DNA from: an uncultured Bacilli bacterium
Lineage (GTDB): Bacteria; Bacillota_I; Bacilli_A; RF39; UBA660
Assembly (NCBI GenBank): GCA_944358665.1
Contig: CALVRP010000092.1
Location: 1-34,650, forward strand
Length of the DNA stretch: 34,650 nucleotides
Direction of reading: 5' to 3'
The position numbers were made by a program, and so were the translations under genes. Of this stretch, positions 2,858 through 34,650 are shown piece by piece. Positions within the stretch are counted from its first letter, which is position 1; the number at the start of each line of letters is the position of its first letter. Under the pieces are notes generated by a model, which did not search any database, was not told the DNA's origin, and worked only from the letters and a program-made list of their open reading frames with translations.

Positions 2858-5257
2858 ATGTATAATTTAGGGGAGCAGTTTAAGTTAAATATGGAGCGAG
2901 CTCTCGCGAAGCATGCAAATGTTACAGCGGGAACTAAATATCGTTTTACTGTTTTAACATCAAGAGTTATTAGATTAGAATATAGCCCTAGTGGTATTTT
3001 TACTGATGCTCCAACTGAACTTGTCTGGTATCGTGATTTGCCTAATGCTAAGTTTAAAGTAAACGAAAGTAATACGTCTTTAGAAATCGTTACAGATTAT
3101 TTTAAACTTATTTATGTTAAGGAGCAACCATTTGCTGGTAACAAAGTAAATCCTTCAGCTAATTTAAAAGTTGAACTTTTAGGGACGGATAGATATTGGT
3201 ATTTTGGTCATCCAGAAGTTCGTAACCTAGGTCTTCCACAAACCACGTTAGAAGGAATAAACATCAAACAAAAAGGTCTTTACTCAGCTGATGGTATTGC
3301 CAGTATTGATGATAGTAATAGTAAGATATTTAATGAAGATGGCACGGTATCTATAAGACAAAATGAAGAAATTGATATATATTTGTTTATGTATCATAAA
3401 GATTATGAAGAAGCTTTAAAAGATTATTATGAATTAACTGGTTATCCCGCATTAATTCCAAGATAAGCTTTAGGAAATTGGTGGAGTCGCAATAATAATT
3501 ATGATGATTTAGAATTGAAAGAATTAGTTGATAGTTTTGAAAAACAAGAAATACCGCTATCTATTGTTGTTTTAGATAAAGATTGGCATAAAAGGGCTTA
3601 TAATAAAAAAGAACATTTAAAAACTGGTTTTACCTTTAATGATGAATACTTTAAAAATCCGGCAGCTATGATTAATTATCTTCATGGAAAAAGCATTCGA
3701 TTAGGACTTAGTGTTGATCCTACAGAAGGAATTTATAATATCGACAATAATTATAGCGAGGCTTTAAAATATTTAGAGGAGCACGATGGTAAAATTCCGT
3801 TTAATGTTTATGATCCTAGATTTATTGATGTTTATTTAAAACTTTTTATTCATCCTTTAGATGAGATGGGAATTGATTTCTTTTGGTTAGACTTTTTTGA
3901 TAAAGATAAATTAGAAGAAGAGGCTTTATTGAAACACTATCAATTCTATGATATGATGCGTGATTATAAAAGAAGACCGATGGTTTTGGCAAAAAACACT
4001 TTAATAGCTCCACATCGTTATCCAGTGTTATATTCTGGTAAATCAGTTGTTAGCTGGGAAACTTTGAAACAAATTCCAAAACATAATATTATGTCATTTC
4101 ATAATGGAGCTAATATGTGGGCTCATGATATTGGAGGTTATTTTAAAGGAGCAGAAGATAGTGAACTATATACACGTTTTGTGCAGCTAGGATGTTTTTC
4201 ACCGATTTTAAAATTTGGCGCTGATAAAGGGAAATATTATAAGAGGGAGCCTTGGCGTTGGGATATTAAGACTTATACAATTGTTAAAGATTATCTAAAT
4301 CTTCGTCATAAATTAATTCCTTATATTTATAGTGAAGTTTATAAGTATCATAAATTTGGAACCCCACTTATTAAACCACTTTATTATACTAACCCTGATT
4401 TATATGACGATGTTCTTTATAGTAATGAATATTATTTTGGCGGAGGATTGTTTGTCTGTCCAATTATTACAAGTAAAGATTATGTCATGGATCGTTCTGT
4501 TCATAACTTCTATATTCCAGAAGGCACATGGTATGATTTTGTTACTGGGAAAAAATTCCCAGGAGGTAAAAATTATATATCATTCTTTAGAGATCAGGAA
4601 TATCCGGTTTTTGCCAAAGCTGGAGCAATTATTCAAATGAGAAAAAATGAAAGTATAAATGATACAACCCCACCAACTAATATGGAAATTGATATTTTCC
4701 CAGGCAAAAGCAATTCTTATACTTTGTTTGAAGATGATGGAGAAAGTGACTTGTATCGTAAAGACTTTTATTTACTTACTGAAATAGAATATAATTATTT
4801 GCCTAATAATTATAGTGTTATTATTAGAGCTAAAGAGGGTAAAAGTGGCATTATCCCTGAAAAAAGAAATTATAAAATTATTTTCAGGAACACTAAAAGA
4901 ACTGATGATGTTAAAGTTTACAGTAACAGAGATGAAATATCCTTTAAAACTTATGTTGATGGCCCAAACTTTGTTGTTGAAGTACCGGATGTTAACACAA
5001 TCGGACAGTTAACTGTTAATTGCAAAGGTAAAGATATTGAAATTGATGCTGTTCATTTAATTAATAAAGAGATAGAAGAAATTATTAGTGACTTGCAGAT
5101 TACTACTGAATTAAAAGAAAAGATTGATGACATCTTATTTGGCACCCTCGAAATTAAAAAGAAAAGAATTGAAATTAGAAAACTCGCTAAACAGGGCCTT
5201 GATAAGAAATTTATTAAAATGTTCTTAAAACTATTAGAATATATCGATCAAATATAA
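2858..5257 (+). pseudogene. GH31-family alpha-glucosidase/alpha-xylosidase interrupted by a single in-frame TAA (3467-3469)
   Basis: ORFs 2849..3466 and 3515..5257 are in the same frame. The sequence reads …GYPALIPR*ALGNWWSRNNNYDD…, so the stop sits where GH31 proteins carry the aromatic residue of the P-x-[WY]-ALG motif. Downstream GH31 hallmarks are intact (GIDFFWLDFFD, WAHDIGGY, RFVQLGCFSPILKF). The likely start is ATG 2858 after AAGGGG. Confidence 0.8.
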
Positions 5258-5323: not shown

Positions 5324-5537
5324 GACAAAGCGATGATTAAGAGTAGTAATAGTAAAGCCTTTTATAGAGAAAAAGTGGCCGGTGAAAACTTTTAAAGGAT
5401 AGCTGTGAACTTACTTATGAGCTGCATATATGATAAGTGTATGACGAATAGACGCGTTAAGTCTTGAGGTAATCAAAGTATTATGAAATAGGGTGGTACC
5501 ACGTTATAAACGTCCCTATATACATAATACTTTTTTG
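5324..5537 (+). promoter_or_regulatory. T-box riboswitch leader, leucine specifier (CUU)
   Basis: The conserved elements occur in the canonical order. AGCGATGA…AGAGTA is the GA/K-turn. AGAGA…GGTGAAA is the Stem I AG bulge and distal loop. GAA-CTT-A (specifier CTT at 5410-5412) sits on the 3' strand of Stem I. GCGTTA is F-box-like. AAATAGGGTGGTACCACG (5487-5503) is the T-box sequence. A hairpin and T-run (5531-5536) follow. Confidence 0.85.
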
Positions 5538-5569: not shown

Positions 5570-6562
5570 GTGTTAGATTCTAATTTTAATCGAATAATTG
5601 AAATGATTGAAAAAAGAAAAAATAATGCTTATAGAAAAGTAAATGAAGAGATGATATTACTTTATCTAGATGTCGGCAAATTTTTATATGAATTAACAGA
5701 AAAAGGAAGTTATGGAGATAAAGTTATTGATAAGGCTGCTGATTTCATGAAAAATAATTATCCAGATATAAAAGGCTTTACTAAAAGAAATCTTTATAGA
5801 ATGGTTCAATTTTATAAAACGTATAAAAATTATCCAAAAGTGTCAACACTGTTGACACAATTGAGTTGGTCTGGTAATATGCTTATTTTAAGTAATACTA
5901 AAACATGGGAAGAAAGAGAATTTTATTTAAATTTAGCTATAAAAGAAAATTATTCTGTAAGAGAATTAAATAGACAGTTACAATCTTCATATTACCAAAG
6001 ATATATGTTATCTGATGGAAAGGTATTGCCAACCCAAAAGAAAACCATTGACGAAAGCGATTACCCAAACACAAGATTACTAGATACATATAGTTTAGAG
6101 TTTTTAGATTTGCCAAATGAGTATTCTGAGAATGATTTAAAAACCGCCATAATTAAAAACTTAAAAGATTTTATTTTAGAAATTGGCAAAGATTTTACCT
6201 TTATTGGTGATGAATACCGAATACAAGTTGGGAATCATGATTATTTTATAGATTTATTATTTTATAATAGAGAATTATCTTGTTTGGTGGCTTTCGAGTT
6301 AAAATTAGGTGAATTTATGCCAGAGTATTTAGGTAAAATGAATTTTTATTTGGAAGCTTTAGATCGTGATGTTAAAAAAGAAAATGAAAATCCAAGCGTT
6401 GGTATTATTTTATGTAGCTCAAAGGATAAAGATGTGGTAGAATATTCACTTAGTAAAACCATGTCACAAACATTAATTTCTGAATATAAATTAAAATTGA
6501 TTGATAAAAAAATATTAGAAGATAAATTAAGTGAAATGAAACAATTATTAGATAATAACTAA
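5570..6562 (+). CDS. PD-(D/E)XK nuclease family protein, DUF1016/YhcG-like
   Basis: GTG start after AAAGGTGGTGA. It has an N-terminal helical region and a C-terminal …IDLLFYNRELSCLVAFELKLGEF… (D…E-x-K nuclease core), the layout I recall for YhcG/DUF1016 proteins. Confidence 0.7.
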   Translation: MLDSNFNRIIEMIEKRKNNAYRKVNEEMILLYLDVGKFLYELTEKGSYGDKVIDKAADFMKNNYPDIKGFTKRNLYRMVQFYKTYKNYPKVSTLLTQLSWSGNMLILSNTKTWEEREFYLNLAIKENYSVRELNRQLQSSYYQRYMLSDGKVLPTQKKTIDESDYPNTRLLDTYSLEFLDLPNEYSENDLKTAIIKNLKDFILEIGKDFTFIGDEYRIQVGNHDYFIDLLFYNRELSCLVAFELKLGEFMPEYLGKMNFYLEALDRDVKKENENPSVGIILCSSKDKDVVEYSLSKTMSQTLISEYKLKLIDKKILEDKLSEMKQLLDNN

Positions 6563-6573
6563 AGGGAGGATTT

Positions 6574-6918
6574 ATGGATTATATATTTACATTTATATTT
6601 TGTTTTTTAGTAATTTATTTACTATATTTATTTGTTATTATTTTAAGAAAAAAAGGTTTAGAAAAATTTAAAACAAGTAAGCAATTAGAATATTTTAAAA
6701 TAAAATTTAAATTAGATACGACTAAGATAAATTTTAAAAAATTTGCAAATACACTAGCAATGACTAATGCATTTATAATTGCTTTTACGGTAACGGTTAT
6801 TGATATATTTGATAATTGGATTTTAAAAATCTTAGTGGCCTTTGTTATTTTACTGCCACTGATGTATTTATTATATACAATATTAGGAAACCATTATAAA
6901 AAGAAAGAAGGTAAATAA
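6574..6918 (+). CDS. Small integral membrane protein (about 3 TM), unknown function
   Basis: ATG follows GGGAGG. It has hydrophobic helices. Its stop TAA (6916-6918) overlaps the leuS ATG (6918-6920) as TAATG, implying translational coupling. Confidence 0.55.
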
Positions 6919-9314
6919 TGTATAATTTTAAAGAAATTGAAAAAAAGTGGCAAAAATATTGGGAAGAAAATGAAACATATAAATTTGATTTTAATGGCGA
7001 TAATAAAATATATTGTTTAGAAATGTTTTCTTATCCATCAGGAGCAAAATTACATCTAGGACATTGGTATAATTATTCAGTGCCTGATACTTGGGTAAGA
7101 TTTAAAAGAATGAATGGTTATAATGTTTATCAACCGATGGGCTTTGATGCGTTTGGCCTTCCTGCTGAAAATTACGCGATTAAAACCGGGATTCATCCCA
7201 AAGATAGTACTGAAGCTAATATTAAAAATATGATTGAGCAAATTAAAGCCATTGGTGGTACTTTTGATTGGCATAATGATGTTGTAACCTGTAGGCCTGA
7301 ATATTATAAATGGACGCAGTGGATGTTTTTAAAACTTTATGAACATGGTCTTGCTTATCAAAAAGAAGCACCTGTTAACTGGTGTCCATCTTGTAATACG
7401 GTTTTAGCCAATGAACAAGCTCAAGGCGGAATTTGTGAAAGATGTGGTAGTGAAGTTATTCATAAGAATTTAAAACAATGGTTGTTTAAAATTACTGATT
7501 ATGCGGATCAGTTAATTGATGACTTAGATAAAATTGATTGGCCTGAGAAAACTAAGACTGCGCAAAAAAATTGGATTGGTCGTAGTAAAGGCGCAATTAT
7601 TAAATTTAAAATAAAAGATTCTGAAGAAAGTTTTGAGGTTTTCACAACTAGATGTGATACTTTGTACGGTTGTACTTATTGTGTGTTGGCCCCTGAAAAT
7701 CCATTAGTTGATAAAATCGTTAAAGAAGAAAATTTAAATGCTGTGGAAAAATACAAAAAAGAAACATCTAAACTAAGTGAGATTGATAGGACTTCAACAG
7801 TAAAAGAAAAAACAGGTGTTTTTACGGGGGCTTATGCCATAAATCCAATAAATGGCAGAGAAGTACCAATTTGGATTTCTGATTATGTATTAGCAAGCTA
7901 TGGAACTGGTGCTGTAATGGCTGTTCCGGCTCATGATGAACGTGATTTTGAATTTGCTACTAAATTTAATTTACGAATTATTAGAGTTATTGAAGGCTGT
8001 GATCTTCCTTATATAGAAGAAGGTAAATATGTAAATTCTCCAATATTAGATGGATTTAGTAGTAAAGAAGAGGCTATTAATAAAATGATAGAATTTTTAG
8101 AAGAAAATAACTATGGTTACAAAAAAGTAAATTACCGTTTAAGAGACTGGTCTGTAGGCCGTCAAAGATATTGGGGAGCGCCAATTCCAATTATTTATTG
8201 TGATGATTGTGGTGTTGTACCAGTTCCTGAAGAAGATCTTCCAGTAGAGCTTCCTTATAATGTAGAATTCACACCAGATGGTGAAAGCCCTCTTGCTAAA
8301 TGTGAAGAATTTGTTAATTGTACTTGTCCAAAATGTGGCAAAAAAGCCAAAAGAGAAGTTGATACTTTAGATACCTTTGTATGTTCTTCTTGGTATCAAT
8401 TTAGATATGCTGATCCATTCAACAAGGAAATGCCTTTTTCAAAAGAAAAAGTAAATAAGATGCTTCCGGTCGATAAATATATTGGTGGAGCTGAACACTC
8501 TTGTATGCATTTAATTTATTCAAGGTTCTTTACTAAAGCACTTCGTGATATGGGCTATCTAGATTTTGATGAACCTTTTGCATCGCTTATTCACCAAGGT
8601 TTAATTTTAGATGCTAATGGTGCCAAAATGAGTAAATCAAAAGGCAATACAATTTCTCCAGATGATTATGTCGATAAATATGGCAGTGATATTTTAAGGA
8701 CATATCTAATGTTTGCTTTTAGTTATACCGATGGTGGCCCTTGGAGTGAAGAGGGTATTAAATCAATTGATAGATTTTATAAACGTATTTTAAATTTAAT
8801 TGAAGAATTTGATGGTAATGATTCCGATGAACGTTATGATGATGTCGATTATGTTTTAAATAATAGTATTAAATGTATAAGAAACGATTTAGATAATTTT
8901 CAATTTAATACTTCAATTTCGAGAATTATGGAATATTTAAATATTCTAATCAAAAAGAAAAGCGAAGGACTAAGTATTCCTAAGCATTATTTAGAACAAC
9001 TTATTCTTATTCTTGCGCCTTTTGCTCCGCATTTCACTGAAGAAATGTGGGAAAAATTAGGTCATACACCGAGTATTCATAATGAAAAATATCCAATGTA
9101 TGACGAAAGTAAAATGGTAAAAAATACTTTTGAATTAGTTGTTCAAGTAAATGGTAAAGTTCGCGGTAAAATAACCGTTTCTAGTGATATTAGTAAAGAA
9201 GAAATGGAAGAAATCGCACTAAAAAACGATAATGTTAAAAAGCATATAGAAGGTAAGGGAATCATTAAAGTGATTGTTATTCCTAAAAAGTTAGTTAATA
9301 TTGTAGTTAAATAA
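6918..9314 (+). CDS. leuS: Leucyl-tRNA synthetase
   Basis: 798 aa. It has the HIGH motif (HLGHWYNY), KMSKS (KMSKSKGN), an editing-domain region ([15 protein letters not shown]) and zinc-type CPSC/CERC cysteines. Confidence 0.95.
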
Positions 9315-9426: not shown

Positions 9427-10269
9427 ATAAAAAAGAAATTTTATACCGCAAAATACGATGCGGTTTTTAAGGCAATATTTTGTAATCCAAAAAATAGAGA
9501 TTTACTACAAACATTACTTGAAAGGTGTTTAAATCAAAAACTATCAATAATAAGTATAGAAGCCCCAGAAATAATAAAAAAGAATGTCTATATGAAAAAT
9601 AAAACTTTAGATGTTTTAGTAAAAGCAAAAGATAAATTAATTAATATTGAAGTAAATAGTGGCTATTATAATTCTTTAGATTATCGAAATAGTGTTTATA
9701 TATTTGAAAAGTATACTGAAGTGTTTAAAGCCGGAGATAAATATTCAAATAAAATAGATGTTATACAAATCAATTTTACAAGTGGCCTTCCTAAAGATGC
9801 ACCAGTAATAGATGAGTGTCAATATGGAAATTTAAAGACAGGAAAAGTAAAGGTGAAAAATTTAATATCCTATGAATATAATCTAGATAAAATAAAAGAA
9901 ATGTGCTACAATGGGAACAAGAAATATAATTATATTGCAGCCTTAGATTTTGAACAAAAAGATCTAGAAAAATATTGTAAAGGTGATGAATATATGGAGA
10001 GGTTTGAAAAAGAAGTTAATAAGTTAAATACCGATATTGAATTTACCGAATTTTTGAGTGCTGAAGAAGACAATGAAAGATTAAAAAACACATTAATTTA
10101 TGAAGCTGAAGAAAAAGGAAAAGCCGAAGGAATGATTGAAGGAAAAACTGAAGGTATTTTGACGGTGGCTAGAAACATGCTTGGTTTAAACATGAATATT
10201 GAGGATATTATGAAAGTTACAGGACTTACAGAAAAAGAAATACTTGCTTTAAAAGAAAATAATGGTTAA
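9427..10269 (+). CDS. Rpn-family recombination-promoting nuclease / PD-(D/E)XK 'putative transposase' (YhgA-like)
   Basis: The listed ORF 9592..10269 lacks the family's N-terminus, but the same frame is open from 9397. It encodes …KKKFYTAKYDAVFKAIFCNPKNRDLLQTLLERCL…, the typical Rpn N-terminus. AAAGGAGG (9411-9418) lies 8 nt before an ATA codon (9427) and there is no ATG/GTG/TTG in range. The core LDVLVKAKDKLINIEVNS and the C-terminal EGKAEG…GLTEKEI tail fit Rpn proteins. Confidence 0.65.
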   Translation: MKKKFYTAKYDAVFKAIFCNPKNRDLLQTLLERCLNQKLSIISIEAPEIIKKNVYMKNKTLDVLVKAKDKLINIEVNSGYYNSLDYRNSVYIFEKYTEVFKAGDKYSNKIDVIQINFTSGLPKDAPVIDECQYGNLKTGKVKVKNLISYEYNLDKIKEMCYNGNKKYNYIAALDFEQKDLEKYCKGDEYMERFEKEVNKLNTDIEFTEFLSAEEDNERLKNTLIYEAEEKGKAEGMIEGKTEGILTVARNMLGLNMNIEDIMKVTGLTEKEILALKENNG

Positions 10270-12891: not shown

Positions 12892-12920
12892 ATAAAATGA
12901 TTTATCAAAAATATTACTTG

Positions 12921-12951
<31 letters not shown>

Positions 12952-13021
12952 TTAATAAAAATAAAAATGTACTAGAAAGTATATAACCTTTCACAATACC
13001 ATAAAAATAAGAGGTGATTTT

Positions 13022-15910
13022 ATGAGGCGGGAGCGCAAAAGAAATAAAATAATAATAATGGTTAGTGCTGTTATATTATGTCTAATGGGAGTGGGTTATG
13101 CAGCTTTTCAAACCCAGTTAGATATTAAAGGAAATACCGAAATAAGTAGTGAGTGGAATATTAAAATAATAAGTGCCGAAGTAAGTGACATTGGTGGTTC
13201 TGGTGAGAATGTTAAAAATACTTATACTGATTTAACAGCTAATTTAGAAGCCAACTTATATAGTAAAGGTGATTATGTAGAGTATGAGGTTATAGTTGAA
13301 AACGCCGGAACTTTTGATGCGAAATTAGATACTTTAGGAATAACTAATAGTAATAATGAAGCGGTTAAAATAACATCATCAGGTTTAATAAAAGGTCAGC
13401 CTCTTTATAAAGGAGAGAGTGCTACTTTAACAGTAAGAATAGAATACAATAGTAATTACGAAGGAGACGCATCCGGAACTAGCGGAGAGACAACAGTAGA
13501 TTTAGGATTTGTTCAAAATAGTGAAGGAACAATAGTTCCAACAAATGATTATTTAGTAACTTATGATTACACTACTAATGGCGGAGAAAGTACAACTGCC
13601 GAGAATGAATATATAACTGAAGGCGAAAGTATTAATCTAAACTATACAGCTACTAAAACTAATTATGAATTTATAGGCTGGAATACAAATCAAGGGGCCT
13701 CAGAAGGATTAACTTCATTAACAATGGGAACAAGTGATATAACATTATATGCCATTTTTGAAGAGAGAATCCCACCAGAGATTAAACTATCTATTGGTGA
13801 TAATGTAGAAGGAGAAAATGATTGGTATAAAGGCTTAGATATAAATGTAGAAGCATCAGATAATGATAGTATAAAAGAAGCCTTATATTGTACAACTACA
13901 GAAGACACATGTACTCCAAATAAAAAGTTAGAACTTACAAATAATAAAGGAACAGTACAACTTGAAAGTAATAAAGATGCAAGTAAAGTATGCGTAAAGG
14001 CTACTGATAATGTTGGTAATGAAAGTACTACAAAATGCACAGATAGTTATAAAGTAGATGGAGAAGTTCCAACAATATCAAATATGACTGTAACTCCAGA
14101 TGATGATACCATGACAATAGAGTTAGAATCTAGTGACAATGAAAGTGGAATAGCTAAATATTATTTCAGTAAAGATAGTGGAAATAGTTATATAGAAAGT
14201 GATAATCCAAATTACACTTTTACATCACTAGATGAAGGAGATTATTTAGTAACTGCTTATGTTAAGGATAAAGCCGGAAATATCTCGGAGATAGAGGCTA
14301 AGTCAACTACTATAAGATATGCAGCCTTCTGTGAACATAATGACATAACTGATTTAGGAGACTGTATCATAGCTACCGAAGCTGGAAATGAAACTGATAT
14401 AGAACTTGCAAAATCCACTATAGAAGCTAAAGGGACACCTAATTTTAATACAACCAGTCCAAGCATTGTTTATAATGAATTACACGGAACAACAACATCG
14501 ACAACATCACATACATATTATGATAATATAGGAACAAATTATAGTTTTAATGCGACTACAGGAATATATACATTAAGAGATTATAGTTATGTCGATCCAT
14601 CTTCAATAGATTATAGTAGTGGAGATTATTATACTTGTATATCAACAGCTACAAGTTGTTCGACATTATATAAAATAACTGGAGTAACCACATCAACAAA
14701 CTCTTCCACTGGTCAAATCACGTATACAATAACAAAATATAACTACACCCAAACTCCAGCAAGTTATGATACAAGTGGAGTAGGAATGTATGCCGGAGAA
14801 GATAATGATGGAACTACCTATTATTACCGTGGCTCAGTTGGTGGAAACTACGTAAAATTTAATAATATGTACTGGCGAATAATAAGAGTAAATGGTGATG
14901 GCTCAGTTCGAATGATATATGATGGAACAAGTGCTCATGCTAATGGAGAGGCAAGCAGTAATAGACAAGTAACAACTAAAGCTTTTAATTCATATATCAA
15001 TGATAATGCCTATGTTGGTTATATGTATGGCGATGTCAATAATTTTGAGCAAACAGATAGTGGGTCTGTAACCTTTACCTATACTGGATTATCCAGCTCA
15101 GCAAGGTATTACTATGGTACGGATTATACTTTTAATGAAAGCACAAGAAGTTATACATTATCCGGAGATTTACACAATGGAACTTTAAGTAGTAGTCAAG
15201 TAGGATATTATACATGCTTTAGTACATCTAGTACGGCCTCATGCCAAAGATTATTCTATACTACAAGATATGCTTCAAGTACTTCAATGGTTGTAAGTGC
15301 AAGAGGTTACGGTTCAACATCATTAGAAGGAGCGCATGCCAATGTCACTGATAGTACAATGAAAACATACTTAGATAGTTGGTATAGTAGTAACTTAAGT
15401 AATCTCGATGATAAAATCTCTAAAGATGCAGTATTCTGTAATAACCGAAATAAATCAAGCAAAAATAGTGGAACATATACCAATACTGGTTATGGAATAA
15501 CACCAACAATCTATGGATATGAAAGATTCTGGAACTGGGCATCACAAGGAAAGTTAGATCCAACGTTAATGTGTGAAACGAATGATAGCTTTAGTGTTAA
15601 CCGGGGCAATAAAAAATTAACATACCCAGTTGGATTAATTACTGCTGATGAAGTAAACATAGCTGGCGGAATGACTGGTATGGTAAATTCGTTATATTAT
15701 TTATACACCGGAACTACATACTGGACCATGTCGCCGTCGTACTTCAGCAACTGGTTTAACGCTCTCGAGATGCTCGTCGACTCCTCAGGAGCGCTGGGCA
15801 GCAACGGCACCTCGAATGCGTACGGCGTGCGCCCAGTTATCAACCTAAATGCTGATAATCTGACGGTAACTGGATCTGGAACCATGGAAGACCCATTTGT
15901 TGTTTCGTAA
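13022..15910 (+). CDS. DGR target (variable) protein: N-terminal signal-anchor, Listeria-Bacteroides (InlB B-type) repeat, Ig-like domains, C-terminal lectin-like variable domain
   Basis: RBS AAGAGGTGA. The N-terminus is basic plus TM (MRRERKRNKIIIMVSAVILCLMGVGYAAF). YLVTYDYTTNGG…YEFIGWNT…ITLYAIF matches the Flg_new/InlB B-repeat. Two motifs of the form ATDNVGNES / VKDKAGNIS are typical of Ig-like surface domains. The C-terminus …YWTMSPS…AYGVRPVINL carries the VR. Confidence 0.85.
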   Translation: MRRERKRNKIIIMVSAVILCLMGVGYAAFQTQLDIKGNTEISSEWNIKIISAEVSDIGGSGENVKNTYTDLTANLEANLYSKGDYVEYEVIVENAGTFDAKLDTLGITNSNNEAVKITSSGLIKGQPLYKGESATLTVRIEYNSNYEGDASGTSGETTVDLGFVQNSEGTIVPTNDYLVTYDYTTNGGESTTAENEYITEGESINLNYTATKTNYEFIGWNTNQGASEGLTSLTMGTSDITLYAIFEERIPPEIKLSIGDNVEGENDWYKGLDINVEASDNDSIKEALYCTTTEDTCTPNKKLELTNNKGTVQLESNKDASKVCVKATDNVGNESTTKCTDSYKVDGEVPTISNMTVTPDDDTMTIELESSDNESGIAKYYFSKDSGNSYIESDNPNYTFTSLDEGDYLVTAYVKDKAGNISEIEAKSTTIRYAAFCEHNDITDLGDCIIATEAGNETDIELAKSTIEAKGTPNFNTTSPSIVYNELHGTTTSTTSHTYYDNIGTNYSFNATTGIYTLRDYSYVDPSSIDYSSGDYYTCISTATSCSTLYKITGVTTSTNSSTGQITYTITKYNYTQTPASYDTSGVGMYAGEDNDGTTYYYRGSVGGNYVKFNNMYWRIIRVNGDGSVRMIYDGTSAHANGEASSNRQVTTKAFNSYINDNAYVGYMYGDVNNFEQTDSGSVTFTYTGLSSSARYYYGTDYTFNESTRSYTLSGDLHNGTLSSSQVGYYTCFSTSSTASCQRLFYTTRYASSTSMVVSARGYGSTSLEGAHANVTDSTMKTYLDSWYSSNLSNLDDKISKDAVFCNNRNKSSKNSGTYTNTGYGITPTIYGYERFWNWASQGKLDPTLMCETNDSFSVNRGNKKLTYPVGLITADEVNIAGGMTGMVNSLYYLYTGTTYWTMSPSYFSNWFNALEMLVDSSGALGSNGTSNAYGVRPVINLNADNLTVTGSGTMEDPFVVS
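15728..15838 (+). repeat. DGR variable repeat (VR), codons 903-939 of the target gene
   Basis: 111 bp, 98/111 identical to 16010-16120. All 13 differences lie opposite TR adenines. Confidence 0.93.
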
Positions 15911-15947
15911 GAAACAACATTAAAAAACTTAATAATGATATATAATA

Positions 15948-15973
15948 GTCAAAAATGACTCTTCATTTTTGAC
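15948..15973 (+). terminator. Perfect 11-bp hairpin downstream of the target gene (terminator and/or DGR cis element)
   Basis: gtcaaaaatga (15948-15958) / tcatttttgac (15963-15973) with loop ctct. There is no T-tail after the stem. Confidence 0.45.
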
Positions 15974-16009
15974 CGGCATAGGGATTAGTCTCATAAGTGC
16001 GTGTGTGTT

Positions 16010-16120
16010 ATGTCGCCGTCGAACTTCAACAACTGGTTTAACGCTAACGAGATGAACGTCAACTCCTCAGGAGCGCTGAACAACAACAACACCTCGAATG
16101 CGTACGGCGTGCGCCCAATT
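16010..16120 (+). repeat. DGR template repeat (TR)
   Basis: Non-coding copy of the VR. In the VR reading frame it contains 11 AAC codons and 33 adenines in total. It is visibly GC-rich relative to its flanks. Confidence 0.93.
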
Positions 16121-16384
16121 TCCTACTACAATTAGTGATTATTTGCTAATGAACCGAGATGTTACAAGGCTACGGCTAATAACGGGAGGAAGTAGTTGCT
16201 GCAGGCAATAATCTATAAATTTAGATTGGAAACAAGATTAATTCCTTGGTCCTGCCTAAAAAGATAATATAGACGTTATATGACTATTTATAATATTTAT
16301 ATAACTACAGCTATATTGGTGGTAGAAATGTTAAGAGGTTTCTAGCCACACACCATAATTAAAATACTATTTTGGAGGAAATTT
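16121..16384 (+). ncRNA. Candidate DGR RNA spacer region downstream of TR (untranslated, several short hairpins)
   Basis: 264 nt with no credible ORF between TR and the accessory operon. It has nested stems gcagg (16201-05)/cctgc (16251-55), aatcta (16210-15)/tagatt (16222-27) and ggaa (16228-31)/ttcc (16242-45), plus a roughly 10-bp bulged stem at 16319-16349. Structure was judged by eye only. Confidence 0.3.
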
Positions 16385-16780
16385 ATGAAATTAATAGATA
16401 TTTATAACAGTTTAAAAGAACAGTATTTAGACGTAATAGTTTTAATGAAAAGTGGTAACTTTTATATAACTTATAATAATGATGCCCTAATATTAAATTA
16501 TCTCTTACACTATAAAAAGATAAATGGTAAAGTAGGTTTTCCTTTAAGTGCTTTAAAAACGGTGGAAAATAAGTTAAATGAAAAAGAAATAAGTTATATA
16601 GTTGCCCAAGAAAAAGAAAATTTAAAACAAAATAATAATTATTATATATATTTGCAAAAGGCTAATGAAAATTTAATAATCGATAATATGTGCGCCAATT
16701 TATTAAATAAAATAAAAGATAAAGTAGCTGAGAATTTTGATAATTATAAACAAATAAAGGAATATATAGATGAATTATAA
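16385..16780 (+). CDS. MutS domain I-like (mismatch-binding-domain-like) DGR accessory protein
   Basis: RBS GGAGG. LKEQYLDVIVLMKSGNFYITYNNDALILNYLL…GFPLSALKTVENKL parallels the MutS N-terminus (…QY…K…P…L…FRxGDFYELF…DA…LT…GvP…YL.KL). The Phe of the F-x-E mismatch motif is kept and the Glu is replaced (GNFYI, 16454-16468). It overlaps the next ORF by 11 nt. Confidence 0.6.
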   Translation: MKLIDIYNSLKEQYLDVIVLMKSGNFYITYNNDALILNYLLHYKKINGKVGFPLSALKTVENKLNEKEISYIVAQEKENLKQNNNYYIYLQKANENLIIDNMCANLLNKIKDKVAENFDNYKQIKEYIDEL

Positions 16781-17123
16781 TTTTAAAATTTTAAATAGTA
16801 CTTATAAAACTATTAATTATATAAATAAATTACTCGTAAATTTCCCCAAAAAAGAAGTTGTTCTTAAAAATAATATAGAAAAAACATGCTACGCAGCAAT
16901 TGAAAATATCTTCGCTTTTAACATTAATGACAGTATTCGTATTAAAGAAAAATATTTAAAAGATTTACTAGTAAAATTATCAATGTTAGATTTTTATACG
17001 AGAACTTCATATGATAAAAAAGTAATAAGTCGTCATCAATTCGAAGTTGTTAGTCGTTTTTTAATTCAAATAAGAAAGATGGCTTTTGGTTTAAAAAAGA
17101 AAGACGGTGAAGTAAGTGTCTAA
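16770..17123 (+). CDS. avd: Avd-like accessory variability determinant (four-helix-bundle protein)
   Basis: 117 aa. …INKLLVNFPKKEVVLKNNIEKTCYAAIENIFAF…LKDLLVKLSMLDFYTRTSY…ISRHQFEVVSRFLIQIRKMAFGLKK matches the FPK-x-E… / basic C-terminal pattern of Avd / 23S-IVS four-helix-bundle proteins. Its position in a DGR operon supports the call. Confidence 0.7.
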   Translation: MNYNFKILNSTYKTINYINKLLVNFPKKEVVLKNNIEKTCYAAIENIFAFNINDSIRIKEKYLKDLLVKLSMLDFYTRTSYDKKVISRHQFEVVSRFLIQIRKMAFGLKKKDGEVSV

Positions 17124-17763
17124 AAAAAAGATAATAATCATTATAATTATCGCGTTAATTATTTTAGGTATCATAATATATTTTGTAAATAAGAATTCTA
17201 ATGATCTTGCCATAAATAGTATAGTAAAACACGATGTAGCTGAAGATTTATATAAAGCAGTAGAACCAAATGAATGCGTTAATATAGATATAAATGAAAA
17301 GGTAAGTACACAAAAAATGAATGATGAAGTATTGCTTTATTTAATTTTCGGTCAAATGAACAAGGATAAATTGCTAACAGATAATATAAGTTTAAATGAC
17401 TTTAATAAGAGTGCAAAAAAAATATTAGGTGATGTAAAGATACCTAAACAAATTAAAAATTATGTATATGATGGTTATGTTTACAATTTAAATAATGATA
17501 AAATTACTAGGGAAAAGTATAATTGTGGTGATAAAAAATATGTGTCTAAATTATATGGGTACACAACTAATGAAAATCAGCTGATTTTAAATATTGCTGT
17601 CGCATATATTCAAAATGGTACTGTTTATAATTTAGATGATGAATTATTAGGTGAGTATGATGAAGAAAATTTAAATGAAATTTTAGATAAAGGTACGATG
17701 GAAGTATATACTTACACAAATACAAATGGTGATTATATTTTAGAAAGTATATCTTTAAAATAA
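17116..17763 (+). CDS. Membrane-anchored protein of unknown function embedded in the DGR operon
   Basis: GTG start overlapping the avd end by 8 nt. Its stop TAA (17761-63) overlaps the RT ATG (17763-65). It has an N-terminal TM (KKKIIIIIIIALIILGIIIYFV) and then a soluble domain of about 190 aa. No family was recognised. Confidence 0.55.
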   Translation: MSKKKIIIIIIIALIILGIIIYFVNKNSNDLAINSIVKHDVAEDLYKAVEPNECVNIDINEKVSTQKMNDEVLLYLIFGQMNKDKLLTDNISLNDFNKSAKKILGDVKIPKQIKNYVYDGYVYNLNNDKITREKYNCGDKKYVSKLYGYTTNENQLILNIAVAYIQNGTVYNLDDELLGEYDEENLNEILDKGTMEVYTYTNTNGDYILESISLK

Positions 17764-18875
17764 TGAGAGTAGAGTATAATGATATTTTATCCATAGATAA
17801 AATTATCGAAGTTTATAAAAATATTTGTTCAAATACTTGTCACAAGGCAAAGTTAGTTAAATTTGAATTAGCTTTTTCTTGTAATATAACAAAAATTCTA
17901 TGTTTGTTAAAAGAAAAAAAGTATAAACATAGTCATTACAGCACGTTTTTAATAAAAGAGCCAAAGTATCGGATAATTATGAGTGAATGTATATTTGATA
18001 AAATTGTCAATCATTTAATTAGTAAATACGTTCTTTTGCCATCTTTAATACCTAAGTTAATAAACATGAATGTCGCAACTAGAAAGTATAAAGGAAGTAA
18101 GGCTGGTATTAATTATTTGAAAAAATATATAAATAAATTAAAACAAAACTATGATAAAATTTATGTTTTAAAATGTGATATTAGTAAATACTTTTATAAT
18201 ATAAATCATGATATTCTAATAAAGAAATTACAAAAAGATATTCCTGATAAAGATTTGCAAAAAATAATTATTGAAATTATTAGTAGTACCAATTATGACT
18301 ATATAAATAAGCAAATAGATAGATTAATTGAAAAAGAAATTTTCCATTTGAAGGAAAAACAAATTTCTGATTTAGAAATAAAAATAAAAATAAAAGAACT
18401 GCATAGTTTACCGCGCTATAAAAAAGGAACTGGGTTACCTATAGGTAATGAAACAAGTCAAATTTTAGCTATATATTATTTAAATGAGCTTGATCATTAT
18501 ATAAAAGAAAAATTAAAAATAAAATATTATATAAGATATATGGATGATTTTATTTTACTGCATCGTGATAAAGAATATTTAAAATATTGTAAGGATAAAA
18601 TAAAAGAAAAAATAGAAGAGTTAGATTTAAAATTAAATAAAAAAACTCAAATATATGACTTAGATAAAGGTTTAAATTTTTTGGGTTATAAATTTAAATT
18701 AAAAGGTAAAAAATTAATTATTCTAATAAATAATCAAACCAAAAAAAGAGTAAAAAGAAAACTAAAAAAAATGAAAAAGAAAAATGTTAATAATTATAAG
18801 CAAGTAAAAGCAAGTTATAATGGTTATTTTAAAATAGCCAATACTAAAAACTTTTTATATAAAGCAAGATTTTAA
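17763..18875 (+). CDS. DGR-type reverse transcriptase
   Basis: RT motifs are present: KYRIIMSECIFDKIVNHLI (motifs 1-2), LKCDISKYFYNINH (motif 3), LPIGNETSQILAIYYLNELD (18441-18461; the [ILV]GxxxSQ signature of DGR RTs) and YMDD (18537-18548). No maturase/endonuclease or retron-like context. Confidence 0.88.
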   Translation: MRVEYNDILSIDKIIEVYKNICSNTCHKAKLVKFELAFSCNITKILCLLKEKKYKHSHYSTFLIKEPKYRIIMSECIFDKIVNHLISKYVLLPSLIPKLINMNVATRKYKGSKAGINYLKKYINKLKQNYDKIYVLKCDISKYFYNINHDILIKKLQKDIPDKDLQKIIIEIISSTNYDYINKQIDRLIEKEIFHLKEKQISDLEIKIKIKELHSLPRYKKGTGLPIGNETSQILAIYYLNELDHYIKEKLKIKYYIRYMDDFILLHRDKEYLKYCKDKIKEKIEELDLKLNKKTQIYDLDKGLNFLGYKFKLKGKKLIILINNQTKKRVKRKLKKMKKKNVNNYKQVKASYNGYFKIANTKNFLYKARF

Positions 18876-31804: not shown

Positions 31805-34650
31805 ATGGCTAATGAAATAGGATTATATAGGCATAACGCAAAAGCTTATGAAAAAGCAAAAAATAATTTAAAAAGTAATGATAGAACTTGTATTGTACAT
31901 GCAACTGGTACTGGTAAGTCCTTTATTGCTCTTCAGGTAATGTATGATTTTATTAAAAATAATCCTGGTAAAAAAATAATTTATTTAACACCACTTAGCG
32001 GAATTAAAGAGCAAGTAAAAGAACATATTAATAAAATAGAAAGAGATAATAAAGAAAAAGGGATAGAATTTCATAGAAAATATTTTGATAATGTAGAATT
32101 TCTTAATTATCAAGCTTTAATTACTAAAAGTGAGGCAGAATTAAAAGCATTAGAAGCAGATTTATTAATAACAGATGAGTTTCATCATATTGGCGCGCCA
32201 GAGTGGACAAGAGCTATTGATGTTTTAATAGAGAGTCACCCTAATATAAAAATATTTGGTATGAGTGCGACTAGGGTCAGAGAAAGAGGTACCGCCAATG
32301 AACAAGATGTTGTAAAGACGTTCTTTAATGGTAATATCGCAAGTGAGTACCCACTAGAAGAGGCTATTTCTGATGGAGTATTACCGGCTCCAAATTATCA
32401 TGCCACTTTAGTTTTTTTAGAAGATGAATGCAGAGAGTTAGAAGAAAAAGTAAAAGAGGGTAATTCTTCTAAAGAAGAAAAAGAAGAATTTAAAAAAGTA
32501 TTAAAAAATATAAAGAAAAAAATAGCTTCAATGGGAGAGAAAACAGTTCAAGATATAATAAATGAATATATAAAAAGAGATGGGAAATATATTTATTTTT
32601 GCCCGCAAGGCGTCGATATCAAAGAAATTCAAAATAATTTTTTAGAAATGTTTACCGAAGAAGAAAGAAAAAATATAGAATTTTATACAGTTCATAGTTC
32701 AAAATATACAAGCAAAGAAAATGAAACTATGTCAAATAATTTTTATCACAATATTACTAGTGATGGTAAGGATGCTAAAAGAAAATTAAGAATAATGTTT
32801 GCTATTAATATGTATAATGAAGGTATTCATGTTCCTGATATTGATGGAGTAATAATGGGAAGAAATACAGAGTCAGATATAATATTTTACCAACAATTAG
32901 GAAGAGCCTTAGCTGTTAAGAAAAAAGATGACAATGATGAAAGTATTATAGAATCACCATTAGTAATAGATCTTCAAGATAATTTTAGAAAAATATTAAA
33001 ATTATATAAAGAAGTCAAACGTAAAATCACGGAAAAGGAAAATTATTATCAAAACGAAACATCTGTAAAAGACAAAAGAGAATTGTTTTATACTTTCGGA
33101 ATAGATGATGAAATTATAAATATTGTAGAAGAGTTAGATAATGTAAAAGCAAGGCTTAATTTTAAATTAACCTTTGAAGAAAAAATGAAAGAATTTTTGG
33201 AATATATAAGAAATAACCCAATTCCCTCAAAGACTAATAAAACAGTAACATTTAATGATAACGTTCCAATGGGAAGTTGGTGGAATGTTAATAAGAAAAA
33301 AGTTTATGAAATGCAAGAAGAAAATAAAGTGGCTAAAGAAATAGTTGTTATAATATTAAAAAAAGAGCCAAATTATTTTTTAGAAAAATTAACCTTTGAA
33401 GAAAAAATGAAAGAGTTTTTGGAATATATTAAAAAAAATGAAATCCCAACTGATGATTCTCCTGCTTGCTTTTCAGATGGCACAAAAATGGGGTATTGGT
33501 GGAGTGATAATAAAAAAATAATATATAATTTACAAGCAGAAAGTGAAATTGCTAAACAAATTATTGAAATTTACAACAAAAAAAGAAGGTTAAGTAAAAA
33601 AGAAAAAAAGCAAAGATTTTTAGCATATATTAAAGAAAATTCTGTTCCAACGCAAAAAGATGGTGCGCTGTTTAGCGATGGCACTCAAATGTATGAATGG
33701 TGGCGGGGTAATAAAAAAATGATATCACAATCACAATACGAAGATGAATTAGCCCGGCAAATTATGGATGTAGTAAATTCACAACTACCATCATTAGAAA
33801 AAAAAATAGCTGAACTTTTAGACTTTATTGAAAAATACGGTTATATACCAACTAAAAGAGACCAAAAAGCTGAATTTACTGATGGTACTAAAATTGGATG
33901 TTGGTGGCATAATCATAAAAATGAAATCCTTGAAATATATGATATTAATGAAAATGCTAAAAAAGTCACAGACTTTTATATGGCTAACAGAAAATTATCG
34001 TTTAAAGAAAAGATGGCCGAGTTTTTAGAATATATTAAGAAATATACAATTTCTGAGATTTTAGCTGAAGAAATCAAATTTACAGATAATTCTCTAGTAG
34101 GTAAATGGTGGAAAAAGTACAAAAACAAAATTAACGATATAAAAGATACAAATGAACTAGCTAAAGAAATAATGCAAATAATAAATGAACTTACTGATGA
34201 AGAAAAAATAGCTGAAATATTTAAAATTTATGAAGCCACCGGTGAATTGCCTAATATGGATGACCCGGAAAAATTTAGCGATAATTCAGATGCAATAGGC
34301 TACTGGCTTTATAAAAATAAGAAAAAAATCATAAAATACGCCGCAACAAATTATAAAGCAAGAGTAATAGCCCAGGCAAATGGTTGGTTAAAATTAACCG
34401 ATGAAGAAAAGATAAATGAAATATATGAGATTTATGAAGAAACTGGTAATTTGCCTACTTTCCGTAATCCAAATAAATTTAGCGATGGTTCTGGTACAAT
34501 AGGTCACTGGCTTTATAAAAATAAGGAAAAAATCATAAAATACGCTGAAACAAATTATAAAGCAAGAGTAATAGCCCAGGAAAAAGGTTGGTCAAAACCT
34601 TCAGCGTTCCAAGAAGAAAAACCAAAGGTGATTAGTAAATTAATAATAAA
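31805..34650 (+). CDS. SF2 (DExH, ResIII-type) helicase with C-terminal tandem helicase-associated (HA) domains; 3' end beyond the window
   Basis: Open frame from ATG 31805 to the window end; it is absent from the ORF track because no stop is reached. Motif I is HATGTGKS, II DEFHH, III SAT (GMSAT) and VI QQLGRALA. At least 7 repeats of about 60-70 aa of the type L(T/S)xEEKxxEFLxYI…P…F(S/T)DG…G.WW…NK follow. Confidence 0.8.
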   Translation, partial: MANEIGLYRHNAKAYEKAKNNLKSNDRTCIVHATGTGKSFIALQVMYDFIKNNPGKKIIYLTPLSGIKEQVKEHINKIERDNKEKGIEFHRKYFDNVEFLNYQALITKSEAELKALEADLLITDEFHHIGAPEWTRAIDVLIESHPNIKIFGMSATRVRERGTANEQDVVKTFFNGNIASEYPLEEAISDGVLPAPNYHATLVFLEDECRELEEKVKEGNSSKEEKEEFKKVLKNIKKKIASMGEKTVQDIINEYIKRDGKYIYFCPQGVDIKEIQNNFLEMFTEEERKNIEFYTVHSSKYTSKENETMSNNFYHNITSDGKDAKRKLRIMFAINMYNEGIHVPDIDGVIMGRNTESDIIFYQQLGRALAVKKKDDNDESIIESPLVIDLQDNFRKILKLYKEVKRKITEKENYYQNETSVKDKRELFYTFGIDDEIINIVEELDNVKARLNFKLTFEEKMKEFLEYIRNNPIPSKTNKTVTFNDNVPMGSWWNVNKKKVYEMQEENKVAKEIVVIILKKEPNYFLEKLTFEEKMKEFLEYIKKNEIPTDDSPACFSDGTKMGYWWSDNKKIIYNLQAESEIAKQIIEIYNKKRRLSKKEKKQRFLAYIKENSVPTQKDGALFSDGTQMYEWWRGNKKMISQSQYEDELARQIMDVVNSQLPSLEKKIAELLDFIEKYGYIPTKRDQKAEFTDGTKIGCWWHNHKNEILEIYDINENAKKVTDFYMANRKLSFKEKMAEFLEYIKKYTISEILAEEIKFTDNSLVGKWWKKYKNKINDIKDTNELAKEIMQIINELTDEEKIAEIFKIYEATGELPNMDDPEKFSDNSDAIGYWLYKNKKKIIKYAATNYKARVIAQANGWLKLTDEEKINEIYEIYEETGNLPTFRNPNKFSDGSGTIGHWLYKNKEKIIKYAETNYKARVIAQEKGWSKPSAFQEEKPKVISKLII
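33167..34650 (+). repeat. Tandem array of at least 7 HA-domain coding repeats, two pairs nearly identical at DNA level
   Basis: Repeat starts at 33167 and 33389 share about 42 nt with one mismatch. 34302-34387 and 34506-34591 are 86-nt near-identical blocks with about 7 mismatches. Confidence 0.8.

Follow-up and report, generated by a model that had tools for sequence, protein, structure and literature searches.

An apparently complete chromosomal diversity-generating retroelement in a low-GC gut bacterium of the Bacilli

The stretch of DNA analyzed here, called the window throughout, is the 34,650 nt of contig CALVRP010000092.1 (GenBank assembly GCA_944358665.1, uncultured Bacilli bacterium; positions 1 to 34,650, forward strand). 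It contains a cassette with the composition of a diversity-generating retroelement (DGR): a target gene whose 3′ end holds a variable repeat (VR), a template repeat (TR), two accessory genes (MSL and avd), a gene of no known family (orfX), and a gene for a reverse transcriptase (RT). All lie on the + strand, in the order target–TR–MSL–avd–orfX–RT. The last four genes overlap successively by 11, 8 and 1 nt, which indicates a single operon, and the RT gene starts 1.6 kb downstream of TR. We put the probability that this element is a chromosomal DGR, belonging to an uncultured low-GC (28%) gut bacterium of a Bacilli/Mycoplasmatota-like lineage, at about 0.93.

Base-by-base alignment of VR and TR, at an offset of 282 nt, shows 98 of 111 bases to be identical (88%), and a repeat search returned a single 111-nt direct repeat at this locus. 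All 13 mismatches lie opposite an adenine of TR (eight A>G, three A>T and two A>C). With 33 adenines in the 111 nt of TR, the exact hypergeometric probability of 13 mismatches falling at adenines throughout is 1.9e-8. VR lies in frame 0 of the target open reading frame (ORF) and ends 24 codons ahead of its stop. Read in the same frame, TR carries 11 AAC codons, eight of which are altered in VR (to Y, S, L, L, D, G, S and G) and three kept. Of the 13 changes, 12 hit AAC adenines, of which there are 22, and the 10 remaining adenines away from the boundary are untouched (p = 0.003). This bias suggests that selection or a preference for context acts in addition to adenine specificity. Setting aside the boundary position 15836, considered below, the changes span 15740–15807. 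The GC-rich segment that follows (VR 15808–15835, TR 16090–16117) is identical in the two repeats, its five adenines included, and homology breaks off sharply at both ends. No further TR-like or VR-like copy was found on either strand of the window, even with adenine positions left free, and a second VR or remote target inside the window was rejected on this basis.

The repeat pair had been proposed earlier by a model working from the letters of the window. Recomputation returned the same alignment figure, exactly the same 13 positions and substitution types, the same tally of AAC codons, the identical 28 nt at the 3′ end and the abrupt end of homology, which we see on both sides. The chance value given in that original prediction, ∼1e-7, becomes slightly stronger when calculated exactly. 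Its repertoire of 15^11 for the AAC codons is a theoretical ceiling only.

The RT is intact and has the motifs of the DGR clade, with the fingertip KYRII at residue 68, IGNETSQ at 227 and YMDD at 259. In a sequence search of the PDB, its best solved-structure match was the Bordetella phage bRT (8ub7, E 1e-25), with group II intron RTs following at 2e-9. The avd product is a small basic protein that also matches the PHROG family ‘Avd protein of DGR’ (E 9e-21). The MSL product matches Pfam MutS_I with 29.5 bits (cutoff 20.6), and the gene is kept in relatives. The mismatch-binding motif of MutS is Phe-X-Glu; MSL retains the mismatch-stacking Phe (GNFYITY), not the Glu, and similar forms occur in relatives. 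PDB sequence searches with MSL, Avd and the target domain gave no meaningful match, and exact-sequence database look-ups of the window RT, Avd and orfX found no recorded gene. Coordinates of all features are collected in Table 1.

Table 1. Components of the DGR locus, in window coordinates (pI, isoelectric point)
Feature	Position	Strand	Basis and remarks
Target (variable-protein) gene, 962 aa	13022–15910	+	ORF list, translation, Pfam and NCBIfam matches
Variable repeat (VR)	15728–15838	+	Last 37 full codons of ligand-binding tip; repeat search and alignment
Inverted repeat TGTTGTTTC-GTAA-GAAACAACA	15898–15919		9-bp stem, 4-nt loop; spans target stop codon, 60 nt after VR; DNA fold
Hairpin GTCAAAAATGA-CTCT-TCATTTTTGAC	15948–15973	+	Conserved; between target gene and TR
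Long-range duplex, 5′ half, GGGAUUAGUCU	15981–15991	+	Pairs with 16235–16245 (AGAUUAAUUCC), bracketing TR
Template repeat (TR)	16010–16120	+	Non-coding; 33 adenines, 11 in-frame AAC codons
Duplex of TR 3′ end/flank AUUUCCUACU (16118–16127) with spacer GGAGGAAGU (16185–16193)	16118–16193	+	9 pairs; encloses two hairpins
Structured spacer of DGR RNA	16121–16358	+	RNAalifold covariation, covariance model
MSL accessory gene, MutS domain I-like, 131 aa, pI 6.6	16385–16780	+	Pfam MutS_I E 9e-7
avd accessory gene, 117 aa, pI 9.8	16770–17123	+	Pfam bAvd (PF22296) 44.8 bits, cutoff 40
orfX, 215 aa, acidic, pI 4.9	17116–17763	+	No known family; between avd and RT
DGR reverse transcriptase, 370 aa, intact	17763–18875	+	Pfam RVT_1; PHROG RT E 5e-82

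For comparison, we collected related loci, all of them metagenome assemblies and numbered L001, L002 and so on. A sister strain, L025, was reached via a cluster member of orfX. Another 10 loci came from a DNA pattern based on the 3′ end of TR and the spacer, and no relatives from peptides of the window RT scanned against JGI metagenomes and IMG/VR. The window and L025 are 98.8% identical over the flanks and MSL–avd–orfX–RT, and ∼85% identical in the target gene. Their TR segments are 94–100% identical per 100-nt block, the TRs themselves differing at six positions. The two VRs differ at 20 positions, of which 15 are sites where both TRs have A, five are sites where the TRs differ, and none lies elsewhere. 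At each of those five TR-difference sites, each VR carries the base of its own TR. These data carry the signature of directional transfer from TR to VR, with adenine mutagenesis, in the window's own lineage. A second pair, L009 and L010, consists of human-gut contigs from different samples, with identical RT proteins that are 71% identical to the window RT. Across 12,107 aligned nt they differ at 14 positions, every one of them a TR-adenine site within VR, and their TRs are identical. In both pairs, then, VRs vary at adenine sites and otherwise follow their own TR. The VR/TR reading of the original prediction is supported by the full DGR gene set beside the repeat as well as by comparison between strains, and the sister-strain result answers the refutation test that had been set out with it.

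Other loci carry the same signature. The nearest species-level relative, L001 (a metagenome-assembled genome labelled ‘uncultured Bacilli bacterium’, RT 80% identical), has the same cassette between feoB and a radical-SAM gene, and 17 of its 18 VR/TR mismatches are at adenines. Direct repeats 282 nt apart can come from duplication, and an ordinary segmental duplication of the target gene's 3′ end, whose copies diverged through random mutation or gene conversion with no part played by reverse transcription, would account for the repeat as such. Yet all 13 differences are at adenines of one copy only (p = 1.9e-8), a DGR RT and Avd adjoin the repeat, the same asymmetry is seen in L001, L025, L009/L010 and other relatives, and each VR tracks its cognate TR. 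Duplication is effectively refuted by these observations, and we regard it as very improbable. Two other loci are recorded here for their layout. L002 (6860–11106), binned as Muribaculaceae, has a distant DGR with an RT 46% identical, in the order MSL–avd–RT–TR–target and with no orfX. In L017 (4140–4260), the VR region of the target continues directly into the 3′ end of TR and its spacer and meets a premature stop, as though recombination between VR and TR had removed what lay between them.

VRs of DGRs are typically polymorphic within populations. The source of the window is probably a metagenome-assembled contig, as are the assemblies of its relatives, and the recorded VR might be the consensus of a mixed population, in which case the eight amino-acid substitutions may not coexist in one cell. 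The VR sequence is, however, clean and in-frame, it has no ambiguous bases, and all of its differences from TR are legitimate A-site changes. We consider a mixed consensus quite unlikely, and it would leave the identification of the DGR unchanged.

The 264-nt non-coding stretch 3′ of TR shows 74–86% nucleotide identity among loci with RTs only 64–80% identical. An RNAalifold consensus of 12 distinct sequences contains 71 pairs, 26 of them with compensatory double changes. For the spacer structure named here, 97% of cells were paired, versus ∼40% with partners slid by 1–3 columns, and none of 500 shuffles attained the observed covariation. Its hairpins lie at 16131–16150, 16161–16183, 16195–16209, 16248–16256, 16265–16318 and 16319–16349. 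A covariance model of the spacer found one copy in the window (16112–16358, 247 bits) and one or two per relative; the corresponding model did not match in L002. Searched against Rfam, the TR/spacer region matched no family, either at gathering thresholds or at E ≤ 1.

Two duplexes connect this spacer to TR. The first brackets TR, as in Bordetella-type DGR RNA. It comprises 11 bp that are 100% paired in 11 sequences, with two compensatory pairs and three one-sided compatible ones, and it also appears in the minimum free energy fold of the single sequence. By analogy, it may be functionally equivalent to the Bordetella-type duplex. The second joins the 3′ end of TR to the spacer. In Bordetella-type DGR RNA, the TR 3′ region and the spacer form a template:primer duplex in which an adenosine primes via its 2′-OH (Handa et al., bioRxiv 10.1101/2023.10.23.563531), and the window duplex is a candidate counterpart of this TR:Sp pairing.

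This second duplex includes the boundary of the homologous region. The 3′ end of TR reads CCCAATT in 83 of 83 TR units of relatives, and the end of VR reads CCC[A/C]GTT in 11 of 11 VRs; in the distant L002 the same difference is seen (TR CCCAA, VR CCCAG). The first A of the boundary varies, being C in the VRs of L009, L010, L028 and L032, whereas the second position is always G in VR. Because the G at 15836 is fixed in every relative, it marks a fixed distinction between TR and VR, not ongoing mutagenesis, in line with the earlier suggestion that this mismatch belongs to the boundary. The fixed A/G could reflect an initiation-of-mutagenic-homing boundary (IMH/IMH*) or selection for Val in the GVRPV motif, and the same pattern is expected in either case. 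The boundary A of TR lies inside the conserved RNA duplex at the TR 3′ end. By analogy with the Bordetella system, a cDNA start just 5′ of 16118 would fit both the fixed difference at 15836/16118 and the variable A that precedes it.

Two further hairpins lie between VR and the TR-bracketing duplex. A hairpin/cruciform is required in BPP-1, where it is downstream of VR, at the stop codon, with an 8-bp stem and a 4-nt GRNA loop (PMC3240598). The inverted repeat over the target stop codon is conserved in sequence in L001 and L009 and is a candidate for such a target-recognition element, or equally for a terminator of the target gene. The hairpin at 15948–15973 shows one compensatory change, in L001/L014 (GGC...GCC). 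It may act on transcription of the target, as an insulator or terminator, or belong to the TR RNA as a 5′ element. A scan for promoters and terminators gave 50 sites versus 44 expected, too close in DNA this rich in AT to place the start of the TR RNA.

The target protein begins with a basic and hydrophobic signal or anchor, followed by a Listeria-Bacteroides repeat and a PKD/OmpL47-like Ig domain. Its C-terminal domain of 366 aa carries VR and has >7,000 homologs. Pfam gave a sub-threshold DUF6273 match over the VR region (E 0.003). The AlphaFold2 (AF2) model of the domain has a predicted local distance difference test score (pLDDT) of 92 and, in a fold search, matched viral DUF6273 proteins at E 2e-4 to 1e-2. 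Against the PDB, the fold search found no significant match, the best local ones being the Legionella Lcl C-terminal domain (8q4e, prob 0.2) and CLEC9A / C-type lectins. DGR variable proteins of the DUF6273/DUF1566 C-type-lectin-like kind, for example those with a Legionella Lcl/LdtA-type C-terminal domain, resemble the target in that VR forms the extreme C-terminal strands, ending ...YGVRPV. The weak Pfam DUF6273 match and the viral DUF6273 matches of the model are further likenesses, and the similarity to Lcl and CLEC9A is local and weak. The window domain differs from them in its length of ∼366 aa, with an N-terminal beta-rich part outside DUF6273, and in that its Pfam match is below threshold.

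The target gene has diverged between the sister strains well beyond VR. Between window 12900–15700 and L025 1740–4520, identity is <70%, with indels, in the N-terminal third and 65–99% elsewhere, against 98.8% in the flanks. TR and the first 200 nt of the spacer, unlike the target gene, are 92–100% identical. The sequence divergence suggests recombination, or strong diversifying selection on a surface protein.

The product of orfX has a predicted N-terminal transmembrane helix and an alpha/beta domain. Its AF2 model is of medium confidence (pLDDT 70), and a fold search with it gave weak NTF2-like or IseA-like matches. All clade members examined have the gene between avd and RT, even L003, where MSL is downstream of RT, and L017, which has no MSL. 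Among 1.84 billion proteins there were 15 close homologs and 126 family representatives. We rejected the idea that the family is exclusive to DGRs, since a distant homolog lies outside any DGR: at L036 4001–4738, a protein of 245 aa (E 2e-27 to the profile) is encoded amid genes for LysM, short-chain dehydrogenase and HSP90 proteins, and neither an RT nor an Avd gene is close by. OrfX could serve the cassette as an accessory factor or the surface protein as a partner, or it could be a passenger. Compared by description, it resembles the CH1 accessory genes in encoding a small acidic protein without identifiable motif inside a DGR cassette. CH1 proteins, though, have 160–169 aa and a pI of 4.7 ± 0.2, and are confined to DGRs that have neither avd nor HRDC nor MSL (Wu et al. 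2018, PMC5758913), whereas orfX encodes 215 aa with a transmembrane helix and stands alongside avd and MSL.

MSL genes are a class of DGR accessory genes always found with avd, their products having 112–283 aa and a pI of ∼7.2 (Wu et al. 2018, Nucleic Acids Res 46:11, PMC5758913). DGRs of the window's type are already catalogued. The window cassette shares with these MSL-containing DGRs, ‘Architecture D’ of that study (PMC5758913), an RT, avd and a small, roughly neutral MutS-domain-I-like protein; TR adjoins the cassette, all parts are on one strand, and the cassette has no HRDC match. It differs in having orfX between avd and RT, and in that TR is upstream of four genes, not directly beside RT. 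With the DGR of Bordetella phage BPP-1 (mtd/avd/TR/brt) it shares adenine-specific TR-to-VR differences concentrated in AAC codons, a VR at the target 3′ end with a GC-rich invariant 3′ segment, an Avd and an RT with IGxxxSQ and YMDD, and an inverted repeat with a 4-nt loop over the target stop codon. The differences are that the window element is chromosomal, amid housekeeping genes, not in a phage; that its order is target–TR–MSL–avd–orfX–RT; that its spacer has ∼230 nt versus 140 nt; that its hairpin is 60 nt from VR, with the loop GTAA; that its candidate IMH/IMH* difference is a single fixed A/G, not several positions; and that the target is DUF6273-like, not Mtd-like. These differences do not change the kind of system. 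The element is a DGR on all sequence-level criteria, appears to operate like the Bordetella prototype, and fits the MSL-containing architecture of Wu et al. 2018.

By analogy with known DGRs, the element would work as follows. An RNA over at least 15981–16350 would be transcribed, in which TR is bracketed by the 15981–15991/16235–16245 duplex and the structured spacer. RT and Avd would reverse-transcribe TR from near its 3′ end (∼16116–16117, if priming occurs in cis as in the Bordetella system), with RT misincorporating opposite template adenines. The adenine-mutagenised cDNA would then replace the homologous VR, 15728–15838, at the 3′ end of the target. Direction would be set by the conserved GC-rich 3′ segment together with the fixed A/G boundary difference. 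In this way, up to 11 Asn (AAC) codons could be recoded in the DUF6273-like C-terminal binding domain of a secreted or surface protein. MSL possibly shields cDNA:VR mismatches from repair. Judged by its sequence, the element is a complete, ordinary and probably functional DGR.

Several observations weigh against this interpretation or parts of it. The Avd match to NCBIfam DivGenRetAVD, 47.9 bits, is under its cutoff of 80. A C-type-lectin fold for the VR domain has no significant solved-structure match in the PDB fold search. The TR 3′-end/spacer duplex is 100% paired yet invariant, and is thus without covariation support. The inverted repeat is 60 nt from VR, whereas in BPP-1 it is adjacent, and its loop GTAA is outside the GRNA consensus. 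The window strain is known from one consensus sequence, and VR may no longer be diversifying in it. Finally, the RT of L025 has a nonsense change, Q157*, and a frameshift in the A-run encoding KKMKKK (L025 6648–7800, equivalent to window 17763–18875), which means that the element can decay in this lineage.

The last two points bear on whether the pattern in the window is a relic, a record of past mutagenic retrohoming in a cassette that is now dead through silent regulatory loss or subtle missense damage. The VR/TR pair of L025 is still adenine-specific at 16 of 17 mismatches with its RT broken, so the pattern outlives activity, and from its sequence the L025 DGR looks recently decayed. In the window, however, the RT (370 aa, all motifs), Avd, MSL, orfX, the target ORF and the helices of the TR RNA are all intact. 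Moreover, where the L025 RT is undamaged it is 99% identical to that of the window, which makes the decay in L025 recent. We consider a relic unlikely, if worth keeping in mind, and favor a cassette that is still functional.

Many related loci carry 2–6 tandem TR-like units, and the window has one. Each unit of an array is preceded by GGGRCTAATCT and has CGCCCAATTTCC at its end; the spacer follows only the last unit. Arrays occur in L003–L008 (at 4284–5015), in L009 and L010 (two units), L016 (four) and L029 (six), and also in L021, L026, L027, L031 and L034. L003, L004, L005 and L008 have identical five-unit arrays, with no difference in 1,100 nt, and show one to four differences in 8.1 kb outside VR. 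The VR of L003 comes from unit 4, from which it differs inside the boundary at 12 adenine sites and nowhere else. In L004, L005 and L008 the VR comes from unit 2, and in L006 from unit 1. Because the arrays are identical and the VRs come from different units, one and the same VR has been templated by more than one unit of an array. We found no description of this in the literature searched; one paper reports a DGR with two TRs serving six VRs.

Units could be chosen through alternative RNA folds that pair any unit with the single spacer, or through rearrangement of the array. Units 1 and 3 of the arrays are adenine-poor, with 22–23 A versus 28–31. In L019, L029 and L031, two full copies of the structured spacer are found, each after a TR unit and ∼630 nt apart, which implies two TR-RNA modules for one RT. 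As a tentative proposal, possible but held with little confidence, the window may represent, with its one template, a lineage of gut-Bacilli DGRs built for choosing among templates. Units, each with the duplex 5′ half GGGRCUAAUCU before it and the primer-pairing AAUUUCC at its end, would be selected by alternative folding and take turns on a single VR; the A-poor units might be stored variants, and orfX would be a genuine fourth component. If confirmed, tandem TR arrays would provide framework switching beside adenine mutagenesis, which is of interest for DGR-based directed evolution.

The window itself is of value mainly for annotation. It supplies a hypervariable surface protein, together with the system that diversifies it, from a gut bacterium that is uncultured, has a small genome and is otherwise uncharacterised; each component has exact coordinates, among them an RNA element that Rfam lacks. 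The covariation analysis is an independent confirmation that a distant Bacilli DGR shares the RNA architecture that cryo-EM revealed in the DGR of the Bordetella phage, namely a duplex bracketing TR and a duplex at the TR 3′ end, the latter invariant here. The lineage also offers a natural set of cassettes for probing the roles of MSL and orfX.

The window as a whole has a GC content of ∼28%. Neighbors of the DGR include genes for pyruvate kinase, feoB, a radical-SAM enzyme, dcuC, PcsB-like peptidases, a MurJ-like flippase and a Clp ATPase, and a T-box leader with leuS. A prophage or plasmid context was rejected, given these housekeeping neighbors and the same chromosomal position being occupied in L001, L009, L016 and L025. 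A 106-nt direct repeat at the contig end (34271–34376 / 34475–34580) has 10 mismatches without adenine bias (2 and 5) and is unrelated to the DGR. A PD-(D/E)XK ‘transposase’/Rpn-like gene lies at 9592–10269, a few kb from the DGR; one is also present in L003 (8103–8933), although L003-type loci are otherwise non-syntenic. The T-box leader (5324–5520, 121 bits) is followed by a YhcG/DUF1016 PD-(D/E)XK nuclease gene (5570–6562) and a 114-aa ORF, and only then by leuS (6918–9314). This gap may reflect an insertion between the riboswitch and the synthetase gene.

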